In this document: positions 374 to 6,393 of the stretch, piece after piece
Position numbering within the stretch: the stretch's first letter is position 1
Layout: the number at the start of each line of letters is the position of its first letter
Virus record (IMG/VR): IMGVR_UViG_2576861133_000006
Direction: 5' to 3' (one strand)
DNA: 6,393 bases
From: a virus
Lineage: Duplodnaviria > Heunggongvirae > Uroviricota > Caudoviricetes
Program-made: the position numbers and the translations under genes
Notes under the pieces: model-generated
Databases searched by the model: none
What the model saw: the letters and a program-made list of their open reading frames with translations, nothing else
What the model was told of the DNA's origin: nothing

Positions 374-646
374 ATGGACAATAACACCATTTCTCTACAG
401 GAGTTGCTCGACAGCATTTCCAGGCTTCGGGAAGACGTGAATACCCTTACCGTCGCCTTCTCATATCTGGCATTCTCAATTCCAAGGGAACAGATGCAAT
501 CAACGCTGGCATCAATCCAGTTTGAATCATGCAATCCCAAATGGTCTCAGGAACAACAAGACTCTTTCAGGCGGCTTGCTGTATTACTGGATGAAAAATA
601 TGCTGGTAAAATTACCATTTCGGCGGACTCTTCAGAGAACCCGTAA
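374..646 (+). CDS. Hypothetical protein, 90 aa, antisense to the lysis cassette
   Basis: ORF with ATG start and strong SD (GAGGA, 6-nt spacer). Product MDNNTISLQELLDSISRLREDVNTLTVAFSYLAFSIPREQ... has no recognisable motif. The 3' end overlaps the convergent DUF1327 gene by 35 bp (612-646). Chosen over the minus-strand 68-aa ORF 334..540, which starts with TTG and lacks an SD. Confidence 0.4.
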   Translation: MDNNTISLQELLDSISRLREDVNTLTVAFSYLAFSIPREQMQSTLASIQFESCNPKWSQEQQDSFRRLAVLLDEKYAGKITISADSSENP

Positions 647-1208
647 TTATTCCCGGTAGTTTTCCTCTGTAGGTTATCAACACATCCTGCGCCTCTAAAA
701 TTACGGGGCGCTTTTCCGGCGACTGCTCATCCCCTTCACATAACCCGGCAGCAACATCCAGGAAGACCTGTCTGATGCTCCTTCTGGCTGCTGCCTCATA
801 AAACTCCAGCGCGGCACCTTCAACACGGTCCAGCGAGATGTCCAGGTCAAAAATTTCACCGTCAAAGCGTTTTTTGTCCCGTAACGCTAAAGTTACCGTA
901 ACTTTATTCTCAAAATTGCGGATCCCTTTCACAATCAACTGCGCCTCTAAAATTACGGGGCGCTTTTCCGGCGACTGCTCATCCCCTTCACATAACCCGG
1001 CAGCAACATCCAGGAAGACCTGTCTGATGCTCCTTCTGGCTGCTGCCTCATAAAACTCCAGCGCGGCACCTTCAACACGGTCCAGCGAGATGTCCAGGTC
1101 AAAAATTTCACCGTCAAAGCGTTTTTTGTCCCGTAACGCTAAAGTTACCGTAACTTTATTCTCAAAATTGCGGATCCCTTTCACAATCAGTTCATAGTTT
1201 TGAGTCAT
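612..1208 (-). CDS. DUF1327/YdfR-like lysis-cassette protein carrying an in-frame tandem duplication (198 aa; about 114 aa without the duplication)
   Basis: ATG at 1208..1206 preceded by GGAGA SD, 4 nt after the pinholin stop. The N-terminus MTQNYELIVKGIRNFENKVTVT... resembles, from memory, E. coli Qin prophage YdfR (DUF1327), which likewise lies between holin and lysozyme. Residues 7-90 are repeated as 91-174. Confidence 0.65.
   Translation of the reverse strand: MTQNYELIVKGIRNFENKVTVTLALRDKKRFDGEIFDLDISLDRVEGAALEFYEAAARRSIRQVFLDVAAGLCEGDEQSPEKRPVILEAQLIVKGIRNFENKVTVTLALRDKKRFDGEIFDLDISLDRVEGAALEFYEAAARRSIRQVFLDVAAGLCEGDEQSPEKRPVILEAQDVLITYRGKLPGIITGSLKSPPKW
687..1190. repeat. Near-perfect tandem direct duplication, 2 x 252 bp (687-938 and 939-1190), in frame within the DUF1327 gene
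   Basis: Direct comparison of the two copies: 251 of 252 positions identical. The only difference is 938 (a) versus 1190 (g), a synonymous TTG/CTG Leu change. 252 is a multiple of 3, so the frame is preserved. Confidence 0.95.
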
Positions 1209-3695: not shown

Positions 3696-4031
3696 ATGAA
3701 GTGGATTGTGATTGATACAGTTATCCAGCCATCATGCGGAATATCTTTTTCAGTCATATGGAGTAAAATAAAATTAATAATCTGGTATCAATCGGATGCT
3801 TTCTTACCTCCTGAAAGTATATTTACACTGACTCACACAGGCATCATGCTCAATAACAAAGTGCTACCTGTAACCATTTACAACGTAGTACCATTCAATA
3901 AAACATTCTGGAATTTAATCAAAAACAGCCAGGAATGCCCTACAAATACAGATAACGTATTGAATGAATGCTTTAATAACCGTTGCACTCTGCAAATATG
4001 TCCTTATGGACTAAAACAACAAAGTCCATAA
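3696..4031 (+). CDS. Hypothetical protein, 111 aa, AT-rich cargo gene opposite to late transcription
   Basis: ATG with AAGGA SD 6 nt upstream. Very AT-rich coding sequence with six ATA codons. Product [32 protein letters not shown]... has four Cys in the last 31 residues and no recognisable motif. Confidence 0.35.
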
Positions 4032-4049: not shown

Positions 4050-4087
4050 ACAAAATCAATATAAACAGCCCCTCCGGAGAGGGGCTG
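4050..4087 (-). terminator. GC-rich hairpin followed by a U-rich tract on the minus strand (putative intrinsic terminator)
   Basis: 9-bp perfect stem CAGCCCCTC(4066-4074)/GAGGGGCTG(4079-4087) with loop CGGA. The minus-strand transcript continues UUUAUAUUGAUUUUGU; on the plus strand the hairpin is followed by GAGAGUGGCG, with no U-tract. It lies 35 nt past the stop of the 111-aa ORF. Confidence 0.4.
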
Positions 4088-4478
4088 GAGAGTGGCGCTA
4101 TGTGCCATTGCATGGTGCCGGGTGCCTCCCGGTGAATTCAGTACCAGCACCTGAATCCGCGATTATCCCATATACCTACTCGCTGATTGCCCCTCCGCAC
4201 AGGGGGATTCACCATGCCAGTTTCTTTTAACAAACTCCCCGCAAACCAGACAACAATCAACCGCCTGAATTGTGAAGTATTTAAAAATTTCTCCCGCTAA
4301 CTGATACCCGGCTAACAGTCTGGCGTTTTCTTTTTCAGCAACGGGAAAGCAACAACCACCACACCCGCCACCAGCACACCGTCAGCCAGCACTGACATTA
4401 TCCGGCTGCAGCAATGCCATTCACAAAAACAGTAAGCAATCACTTTTTACCGTAACCGGTGATAATCCAGATATGTAT

Positions 4479-4805
4479 CTACCCCAGATGAGTAATCCGA
4501 AGTTCATCCATACCACAGGTCCTGGCTATTCTGTTGTACTCCTGAACAAGAGTAAATAATTCTGAATTAGCCACCATGAACTCATCGCAAACCCTCTGTA
4601 TAGCATCACTATTCAGAATAATAACGTCTCTTCCCGAAAGACGATCAGGAGTACAGAACAAAACTGTCAAACGGCTGAAGGCCTTTGCTCGTGCTGCATT
4701 GACTATATCAATACGCTGCCTAAGGATGAAACACCCCGACGCCTCATCAATATTCACTCTACCCACACCATATGAATGATAAATATTTAATGCTGAAAAA
4801 ACCAT
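4479..4805 (-). CDS. Hypothetical protein, 108 aa from ATG at 4805 (118 aa if the GTG at 4835 is used)
   Basis: Minus-strand ORF in the cargo slot. Product MVFSALNIYHSYGVGRVNIDEASGCFILRQRIDIVNAARAKAFSRLTVLFCTPDRLSGRDVIILNSDAIQRVCDEFMVANSELFTLVQEYNRIARTCGMDELRITHLG. It contains 3 AGA, 3 AGG and 3 ATA codons. No convincing SD before either start and no recognised family. Confidence 0.4.
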   Translation of the reverse strand: MVFSALNIYHSYGVGRVNIDEASGCFILRQRIDIVNAARAKAFSRLTVLFCTPDRLSGRDVIILNSDAIQRVCDEFMVANSELFTLVQEYNRIARTCGMDELRITHLG

Positions 4806-4942
4806 TAGACCGTATAACAAACACTCAATCAACACTTAACAGAACTTTTATTTTTGACAAACATATAATATTTTCAACAATATCCTGAGCCAGGTATATT
4901 TCAGTATAAGGCTCTGCCGGAAGGAATCTGGAAGAATGAATA

Positions 4943-5019
4943 TGGCGCGCTGTACTGGATTCGAACCAGTGACCGATTGCTTAGAAGGCAATTGCTCTGT
5001 CCGGCTGAGCTAACAACGC
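4943..5019 (-). tRNA. tRNA-Arg, anticodon UCU, 77 nt (phage argO/argU-like)
   Basis: Minus-strand sequence GCGTTGTTAGCTCAGCCGGACAGAGCAATTGCCTTCTAAGCAATCGGTCACTGGTTCGAATCCAGTACAGCGCGCCA. Acceptor stem GCGTTGT/ACAGCGC (one G.U), D stem GCTC/GAGC, anticodon stem ATTGC/GCAAT with loop CTTCTAA, T arm ACTGG-TTCGAAT-CCAGT, encoded CCA. Confidence 0.9.
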
Positions 5020-5119
5020 TGAATACCGATAATGGACCGCCATCGGGGACCCGCCCCCGCACCAACAACCCTGTTATCGTGTCGTCTGCTCTTCCTGATA
5101 AGCTAATGGCGGTTTGTGA

Positions 5120-5195
5120 TGGTGGCCCTTGCTGGATTTGAACCAGCGACCTGGCGATTATGAGTCGCTCGCTCTCACCACTGAGCTAAAGGGCC
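5120..5195 (-). tRNA. tRNA with CAU anticodon, 76 nt; most likely tRNA-Ile2 (lysidine type, ileX/ileZ-like) rather than tRNA-Met
   Basis: Minus-strand sequence GGCCCTTTAGCTCAGTGGTGAGAGCGAGCGACTCATAATCGCCAGGTCGCTGGTTCAAATCCAGCAAGGGCCACCA. Perfect acceptor stem GGCCCTT/AAGGGCC, anticodon loop CTCATAA, T arm GCTGG-TTCAAAT-CCAGC, encoded CCA. Very close to E. coli ileX as I recall it. Confidence 0.9.
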
Positions 5196-5244: not shown

Positions 5245-6294
5245 TCAAACGATTAAACCCTGAACTTCCCTGACTGTCTGCTCAAAACGTCCGGTCTCCA
5301 GCTCAACGCCAATCGCACGACGCCCGAGCGCCAGTGCCGCTTTTACCGTTGAACCTGAGCCCATAAAAAAATCTGCAACCAGGTCACCCGGACGACTGCT
5401 TGCGCTGATTATCTGCTGCAGCATTTCTGCCGGTTTTTCGCACGGATGTTTCCCGGGATAGAACTGCACCGGTTTATGTGTCCACACATCCGTGTACGGC
5501 ACCTGCGCCGTCACACCAAAATACCGCCGCAGATGCTTATATTCACTCTGCAGCTCCACATACTGCCGGTTCAGTGACGTATACGTATCCACCAGCTGGT
5601 GGTGGGGCTTTTCCAGTTCACCGCGCTGATGTTTCTCTTCTGCCACCCGGGCAAACAGCGACTGTAATTTCAGATAATCGCTTTCGTTCGGTAGCTGCCA
5701 CTGACTGGCACTGAACCAGTGCGACACCATGTTTTTCTTTCCTGTGGCATCTGCAATCTGTTTTGCCGTTATCCCCAGGGCCGCGCGCGCATCACGAAAG
5801 TAAGAAATCAGCGGGGCCATCACATGCTGTTTCAGTGCACTGCCCTTCGCCGCATACCCGGCATCTTTCGGACGATACGGCCCCTGATAATGTTCCGCGA
5901 ACAGAATGCGCTCTGTGGCGGGGAAATACGCCCGCAGGCTTTCCTTGTTGCATCCGTTCCAGCGTCCGGACGGCTTCGCCCAGATAATATGGTTCAGCAC
6001 ACTGAAGCGTTCACGCATCATGATTTCGATATCAGATGCCAGGCGATGACCACAGAACAGGTAAAGACTTCCGGCAGGTTTCAGCACCCGCCAGAACTGC
6101 GCCAGACACTGGTCCAGCCACTTCAGGTAATCATCGTCGCCCTTCCACTGGTTATCCCAGCCCTCAGGCTTCACTTTAAAGTACGGCGGGTCCGTGACTA
6201 TCAGGTCAACAGAATTTTCGGGTAACGACCGGATAAATTCCAGGCAGTCGGCGTTGATTAACTCACAACTGGATATTTTTACAGTATTAGCCAT
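5245..6294 (-). CDS. DNA methyltransferase, beta-class amino-MTase (N6-adenine or N4-cytosine), 349 aa
   Basis: DPPY catalytic motif near the N-terminus (LIVTDPPYF) and FxGxG SAM-binding motif near the C-terminus (DFFMGSGST). The order motif IV then motif I defines the beta class. In-frame stops immediately upstream of the ATG at 6294 fix the start. No restriction endonuclease partner is present in the window. Confidence 0.85.
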   Translation of the reverse strand: MANTVKISSCELINADCLEFIRSLPENSVDLIVTDPPYFKVKPEGWDNQWKGDDDYLKWLDQCLAQFWRVLKPAGSLYLFCGHRLASDIEIMMRERFSVLNHIIWAKPSGRWNGCNKESLRAYFPATERILFAEHYQGPYRPKDAGYAAKGSALKQHVMAPLISYFRDARAALGITAKQIADATGKKNMVSHWFSASQWQLPNESDYLKLQSLFARVAEEKHQRGELEKPHHQLVDTYTSLNRQYVELQSEYKHLRRYFGVTAQVPYTDVWTHKPVQFYPGKHPCEKPAEMLQQIISASSRPGDLVADFFMGSGSTVKAALALGRRAIGVELETGRFEQTVREVQGLIV

Positions 6295-6393
6295 AGATCA
6301 ATAAGCACTTCTCTGATAGGCTCATACCGCTTTTGCGCAAAGCAGATGGGCCTGAGGTTTGCTTGTGACCCCAACGCATGAGCAGATGGCTGG

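Follow-up and report, generated by a model that had tools for sequence, protein, structure and literature searches.

Does a methyltransferase gene that stands in a prophage with no restriction endonuclease beside it read a DNA sequence of its own, and what does it do for the phage and for the cell that has to live with it? This question is raised by a stretch of 6,393 nucleotides of Caudoviricetes DNA (IMG/VR record IMGVR_UViG_2576861133_000006), which is called the window below. A preliminary description, made from the letters alone, had presented the gene at 5245..6294 as an orphan, phage-borne methyltransferase of the beta class, with room for a recognition domain of unknown specificity. 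We have found that the gene is an intact open reading frame of 349 aa on the minus strand, with its ATG at 6294 and its stop codon at 5245-5247.

The protein matches the Pfam family N6_N4_Mtase (PF01555) with an E-value of 2.4e-44 and 152.4 bits (cut-off 26.7) over aa 29-340, and this match covers the profile positions 1-219 of 221. Two motifs were located by regular expressions on the translation. Motif IV, DPPY (aa 35-38; 6181..6192, minus strand), belongs to the catalytic pocket for the flipped adenine and is invariant in 43 homologues, while motif I, FMGSG (aa 310-314; 5353..5367, minus strand), is the SAM-binding motif and was also placed by the homologue alignment. Just N-terminal of the latter lies the family-invariant HPCEKP (aa 283-288; 5431..5448, minus strand), identified by alignment to M.BceJIV, which corresponds to the HP(T/C)(Q/E)KP motif of the solved beta-class enzymes. 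That is, motif IV precedes motif I, as is the order in the beta class, and together with the PF01555 match this upholds the class given before. In the Dam-type alpha class (PF02086, GATC) the order of the motifs is the reverse, and PF01555 is the only match of the protein. On the more specific NCBIfam models, the protein falls far below the cut-offs both of YhdJ (113 vs 292 bits) and of CcrM (72 vs 830 bits). As all the residues that are invariant across the 43 homologues are kept in the alignment, the methyltransferase shows, as far as its sequence can tell, no sign of inactivation.

The phage-borne origin is confirmed by the surroundings of the gene. In its entirety, the window is matched at 99.4% by a lambdoid prophage of E. 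coli ST131; Stx-converting phages match it at 85-94% with their Q-to-lysis region. In strains 81009 and EC958, the genes are arranged as Q, a 65-aa ORF, the methyltransferase, tRNA-Ile, tRNA-Arg, DUF3927, IraM and a SASA esterase, followed by the holin, YdfR, lysozyme, terminase and structural genes. This arrangement recurs in the Stx2a phages, where stx2AB occupies the cargo slot. In Klebsiella, Q is followed by the small ORF, the methyltransferase and the lysis genes; in Salmonella, the small ORF, the methyltransferase and the lysis genes come in the same succession, and the gene upstream of them has no Q-family match.

It might be argued that the gene is inert baggage in this prophage, intact by sequence and never expressed. 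The prophage of the window may be defective, and in its close ST131 relatives IS elements have inserted into the lysis region and tail-fibre genes have become pseudogenes; in addition, the host element of M.EcoGII, a close relative of the enzyme that is treated below, has been described as a cryptic prophage (Murray et al., PMC5778455). Nevertheless, this reading appears unlikely in view of the invariant residues, every one of which is kept, and of EC958, which still has Q, the pR' promoter, holin, lysozyme, terminase, and head and tail genes. The exact protein is also found on at least 1000 contigs, within a 90%-identity cluster of 5932 members. Actually, the DNA of the gene is present in 1978 of 5426 complete E. 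coli genomes, i.e., about a third, with up to six copies per genome, and 2929 clusters across the Enterobacterales match the protein at E<=1e-10.

Relation to M.EcoGI and M.EcoGII

The protein of the window is 100% identical to WP_000024331.1, which is encoded in E. coli ST131 EC958 and in strain 81009. According to Forde et al. (PMC4659465), EC958 has a single M.EcoGI-like enzyme, M.EcoMV, which is carried on its prophage Phi4. From the description in that paper, we infer that its old locus tag EC958_1545 denotes the RefSeq gene of WP_000024331.1, so that M.EcoMV and the window protein do not differ at the protein level. The two loci also have the same order from Q through the 65-aa ORF, the methyltransferase, tRNA-Ile, tRNA-Arg, IraM and the sialate esterase to the holin; elsewhere, 35 substitutions and a tandem duplication of 252 bp in ydfR set the window prophage apart from EC958.

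M.EcoMV and the M.EcoGI enzyme of E. coli O104:H4 C227-11 share 99% identity (PMC4659465), and it is this published figure that we use for the closeness of the window protein to M.EcoGI. To M.EcoGII, the window protein is identical over the full length at 329 of 350 positions (~94%), where the comparison sequence was machine-read from the supplement of PMC11551740. The machine-read text contains probable errors (NHHIWA vs NHIIWA, a gap of one residue and one additional R), and the true identity is therefore likely to be slightly higher. M.EcoGI and M.EcoGII themselves share 333 of 349 residues (Murray et al. 2018, PMC5778455). Both enzymes methylate adenine in any context (PMC4659465, PMC5778455), and M.EcoGII does so in any DNA context and also on RNA and DNA:RNA hybrids in vitro (PMC5778455). 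M.EcoGII shares with the window protein the length of 349 aa, the beta class, the split Rossmann fold, the inserted helix-turn-helix (HTH) bundle, the charged linker and the location on a prophage. The ~17-21 substitutions between them, some of which may be reading errors, lie mostly in the inserted domain and the linker (A148E, S152R, S164A, S191P, and a cluster at aa 236-263).

The fold has been modelled by AlphaFold2 from the 43 homologues, with a mean pLDDT of 71 and with most blocks of the Rossmann core at 85-95. A Foldseek search with this model places CcrM, M.BceJIV, MboIIA and RsrI at the top (E 1e-14 to 1e-11), and with PvuII included the range is 2e-14 to 1e-9, i.e., the solved beta-class fold is matched. 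By sequence, the nearest solved relatives are M.BceJIV, M.RsrI, CcrM, a rotifer N4-cytosine enzyme, MboIIA and M1.HpyAVI, all of which are of the beta class, and the alignment with them is limited to aa 8-141 at most and aa 270-343 at most. Between these two parts, the model predicts an inserted helical domain (aa 146-223; 5626..5859, minus strand; block pLDDT ~53-84) with an HTH at about aa 177-194. The helices, predicted with moderate confidence, span aa 146-173, 177-184, 190-194 and 204-223, and the domain is followed by a long linker helix at aa 231-255. When the middle segment is searched alone, it gives an HTH_3 match at about aa 166-194 with E=0.008, which is below the cut-off.

The helical insertion agrees with the published model of M.EcoGII, in which a split Rossmann fold (aa 1-134 and 260-349) encloses a four-helix HTH bundle (160-237) and a charged linker (PMC11551740); in solution, M.EcoGII is dimeric by size-exclusion chromatography (PMC11551740). 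On the other hand, M.BceJIV, M.RsrI, CcrM, M.MboIIA and E. coli YhdJ, which have the same catalytic fold and motif order and are ~20% identical to the window protein, are sequence-specific and do not have the helical insertion of ~125 residues. The segment between DPPY and FxGxG had been estimated at roughly 250 residues and considered long enough for a target-recognition domain. Its length is in fact 271 residues; it does contain a helical domain of ~80 aa and a helical linker, but the remainder, with motifs V-VIII and X, is catalytic.

Could the inserted domain then read a motif of its own, as the preliminary description supposed for a sequence-specific orphan enzyme? The predicted HTH would suit such a function, many members of the family have been named 'site-specific DNA-methyltransferase' by NCBI, and at least one site-specific enzyme, M.PflMI, whose predicted architecture is similar, is known from the wider family (PMC11551740). 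However, the automatic product name is generic and does not constitute evidence, and the enzymes at 99% (M.EcoGI, to M.EcoMV) and ~94% (M.EcoGII) identity methylate all adenines. Since the protein is the published M.EcoMV with these relatives, the idea of a domain with a specificity still to be found has to be given up, and a sequence-specific enzyme is very unlikely here. We conclude that the window enzyme is most likely a non-specific adenine methyltransferase, its activity being judged from the enzymes that are 94-99% identical to it. Within such an enzyme, the HTH bundle between the Rossmann halves would probably hold the nucleic acid without reading its bases. The enzyme is thus already known: it has been named (M.EcoMV, M.EcoGI, M.EcoGII), and its family is biochemically characterised.

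Probable late transcription and proposed role

As to the expression of the gene, the stretch TCTGTGGTAAATTTGCTCTAACGATGGG directly after Q aligns almost base for base with ATTGGGTAAATTTGACTCAACGATGGG of phage lambda at pR'. In lambda, the -10 element and the AACGAT pause signal both lie within this stretch ATTGGGTAAATTTGACTCAACGATGGG. Next after pR' comes a GC-rich hairpin with a T-run, and a second hairpin of this kind overlaps the stop codon of the 65-aa ORF. On the other side of the gene, a scan of the window has revealed nothing that resembles a promoter or a terminator before the tRNAs. Since the gene is downstream of Q, pR' and two terminator-like hairpins, it should be a late gene on a Q-dependent late transcript, and this would explain the silence of the methyltransferase in lysogens.

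The published data on the group are in line with this placement. M.EcoGII is silent in its prophage and its constitutive expression harms the cell (PMC5778455), and Murray et al. have suggested that it is switched on at the launch of prophage lytic growth (PMC5778455). For M.EcoMV in EC958, transcription was significantly below that of dam in RT-PCR, and no SMRT methylation pattern could be assigned (PMC4659465). Location on a prophage, a trait of this non-specific group, is observed directly for the window gene, which stands behind pR' and the terminators, while the silence in lysogens comes from the EC958 literature data. We have found no publication that mentions EcoGII together with antitermination.

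No match to nuclease families was obtained by profile search among the window ORFs scanned, which besides the methyltransferase encode a holin, YdfR/DUF1327, a SASA sialate O-acetylesterase, IraM and one protein of unknown function. In the EC958 and 81009 loci with the identical gene, the annotation shows no restriction endonuclease over ~9 kb upstream or downstream. A restriction gene was also looked for immediately past the upstream end of the window and is absent; the 65-aa ORF and the Q antiterminator stand there instead. An adjacent cognate endonuclease, which characterises a Type II restriction-modification system, is therefore lacking, and the gene can be called an orphan within the scanned window ORFs and the ~9-kb flanks of the identical loci. 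As for the HNH gene next to the terminase genes, an association with packaging is probable.

Taking these observations together, we consider it highly probable that the gene encodes a late-operon, non-specific N6-adenine methyltransferase of a 'Phi4'-type lambdoid prophage, which would give the progeny blanket m6A protection. In this mechanism, after induction, RNA polymerase modified by Q would read through the terminators, and the enzyme would be produced together with the lysis and morphogenesis genes. The replicating phage DNA would be blanketed with m6A before it is packaged, and the progeny DNA would therefore enter the next host already protected against m6A-blocked Type I, II and III systems, whatever their recognition site. 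The same blanket would also leave the DNA open to attack by Type IV nucleases that depend on m6A. The anti-restriction role as such is inferred, and our literature search has retrieved no report of hypermethylated packaged DNA, or of poorer plating on restricting hosts after loss of the gene.

Both protection from host restriction and an epigenetic role had been put forward for the gene, and of these two the former is the likeliest. According to the latter, the enzyme would act as a regulator in the lysogen in the manner of Dam or CcrM, altering expression by methylation of the host DNA. CcrM and the regulator M.BceJIV are among the closest solved relatives, and the phage-borne M.EcoGIII does affect host expression in O104:H4 (PMC6602927). 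A regulator of this kind would have to act in the lysogen, whereas the identical gene of EC958 is transcribed far less than dam with no assignable methylation pattern (PMC4659465), constitutive M.EcoGII is harmful to the cell (PMC5778455), and the gene is placed behind pR' and the terminators. An epigenetic function is highly improbable in light of these facts.

Structured leader and small upstream ORF

If the enzyme is a late-expressed, non-specific adenine methyltransferase, there remains the question of how the cell survives with such a toxic gene, which so far has been explained just by its late-gene status. In this respect, the region in front of the gene deserves attention. The gene is preceded by a leader of ~135 nt, of which the window contains the 3' 99 nt (6295..6393, minus strand), comprising the 3' strand of helix P1, P2, the 3' strand of P0, P3 and the invariant UGAUCUAUG start region. 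The 5' part, including the 5' strand of P1, extends ~35 nt past the window end, and the full leader corresponds to 10051-10185 (minus strand) of record L003. At the nucleotide level, the leader is conserved across 49 loci that represent many genera of the Enterobacterales and range from Escherichia to Yersinia and Ewingella, while the encoded proteins are merely 62-81% identical. Its core pattern is present in 120 IMG/VR contigs, and in all 116 of those whose sequence extends far enough downstream, a constant 52-53 nt separate the pattern from the start of the methyltransferase.

The alignment of the 49 loci supports a model with four helices and a weak fifth one, in which 94% of the cells of the helices are paired. 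Double-sided changes are observed in 14 pairs of the leader, compared with 4.1 +/- 1.3 in column shuffles (none of 500 attains the value of the real alignment) and 3-8 in slid controls. In the hairpin P1, 9 of the 12 pairs show compensatory changes, and one pair in P2 varies between C-G (27 sequences), A-U (10) and U-A (7). Between the helices, the unpaired stretches AAUGGGCGGC, UCACAAGC, GGCCCA, UGAGCCUA and UGAUCUAUG are near-invariant. In addition, the invariant AUGGGC has two pairing partners: with the downstream GCCCA it closes a three-way junction, and with GCUCAU just after P1 it forms a helix that is 99.7% paired and excludes P2. As these two pairings are mutually exclusive, they suggest alternative conformations, i.e., a switch. 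A candidate helix, P4, which would sequester the start region, is paired at 85% and has no covariation support, and was rejected.

Several other identities of the leader have been considered. A comparison with Rfam, including its SAM riboswitches and ribozymes, gave nothing credible. The prophage sRNAs AsxR, AgvB, Pas and STnc100 map downstream of the cargo and not to the leader. A small upstream coding ORF does not account for it either, since frame and length vary, stops after 7 codons are common, and the peptide changes where the stem covaries. By consensus scan, we have found no second sigma-70 promoter at the leader start; the string TGTGGTAAAT is shared with pR'.

The 65-aa ORF (WP_000917751.1, phrog_331) is located between Q and the methyltransferase, outside the window at ~6446-6643 on the minus strand, which corresponds to 10202-10399 of record L003. 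It has sub-threshold matches to winged-helix proteins, and phrog_331 carries no function annotation. The E. coli, Klebsiella and Salmonella versions of the ORF share 86% identity. Where upstream sequence is available, 55 of 78 genome loci have the ORF ahead of the methyltransferase, and among the viral loci 101 of 109 do; some loci keep the leader without the ORF. An identity with lambda orf-64 was rejected, as the two do not align at E<=100.

A comparable arrangement exists in phage Mu. There, com-mom is a toxic, late, broad-spectrum adenine-modifying anti-restriction function, which has a small ORF and a structured leader in front of it and remains off until the late lytic stage. Mu Mom makes an adenine adduct and not m6A. 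The logic of the two loci is thus comparable, but the proteins are unrelated and the chemistry differs, and the leader of the present locus also occurs without the 65-aa ORF. Here, the structured 5' leader would probably add post-transcriptional control over a dangerous enzyme, to which the small winged-helix-like protein encoded upstream may contribute. We tentatively propose, as a possibility that falls somewhat short of an even chance, that the leader and the 65-aa ORF constitute an undescribed post-transcriptional safety catch on the toxic methyltransferase, which could be com-mom-like or could sense a ligand or a protein. For both elements, the searches returned no Rfam match, no functional annotation in Pfam or PHROGs and no mention in the publications consulted, and they may be new. 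They offer a concrete handle on how the toxic gene is tolerated.

Downstream tRNAs and other features of the window

The stop codon of the methyltransferase is 49 nt from the first tRNA gene, which has the anticodon CAT (5120-5195, minus strand). It was called as Met by ARAGORN and was also detected by Rfam, while the identical gene is tRNA-Ile in RefSeq. The second, tRNA-Arg (TCT), is at 4943-5019 (minus strand) according to both ARAGORN and Rfam. Between the two, the sequence at ~5030-5115 (minus strand) looks like a decayed third tRNA, which is not called by ARAGORN: the 100-nt gap aligns at both ends with the middle tRNA-Arg of an Stx2a phage, and the region of the anticodon arm has been replaced.

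The gene had been described as lying directly upstream of a tRNA array and cargo. This placement is correct, and the array consists of two callable tRNAs, but the emphasis on the adjacency is not justified. We have surveyed 60 homologue-bearing loci, 58 of which are species-level genome loci, and tRNAs directly downstream of the gene are found in only one of these 58, that of E. albertii; in Klebsiella, it is the holin that follows the methyltransferase, in the place of the tRNAs. A functional coupling between the methyltransferase and the tRNAs is therefore rejected, and the adjacency is a cargo insertion site of the Escherichia Stx-type phages rather than a functional pairing. The proposal that the enzyme really acts on RNA (late transcripts or the neighbouring phage tRNAs) would account for the position 49 nt before a tRNA, and M.EcoGII does methylate RNA and DNA:RNA hybrids in vitro (PMC5778455). 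This proposal is the least probable of the readings considered, given the rarity of this arrangement in the survey and an initial rate of M.EcoGII on RNA of ~1% of that on DNA (0.12 vs 11.12; PMC11551740 Table S3).

In several other Stx2a phages (e.g., Escherichia phage PA16 and P8983; records H105-H112), just the last 33 residues of the methyltransferase are matched, at 82% identity, and the match sits under a gene annotated as DNA methyltransferase. A mosaic junction beside the tRNAs, where the methyltransferase gene has its 3' end, is suggested by this pattern.

Further along the window, downstream of the tRNAs, an ORF of 118 aa at 4479-4835 (minus strand) is unannotated in RefSeq, matches phrog_2873 (function unannotated) with E=1.2e-69 and is probably a genuine cargo gene. 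The Rfam sRNA STnc100 is matched over its full length (132 bits, E=7e-30) at 4057-4246 (minus strand), between the cargo ORFs and IraM, with a strong terminator-like hairpin at 4066-4087; this is the position reported for prophage sRNAs of the Pas, AsxR and AgvB types. The IraM anti-adaptor homologue itself (3696-4031, plus strand; NCBIfam PRK09919, E=4.7e-48) lies in a patch of 33-40% GC and runs against the direction of the late operon. Finally, ydfR/DUF1327 contains a perfect tandem duplication of 252 bp at 687-1189 (2.0 copies, 100% match), which results in an ORF of 198 aa at 612-1208 (minus strand) with two copies of DUF1327 where EC958 has a single copy. This duplication may be a real recent event or an assembly artefact.
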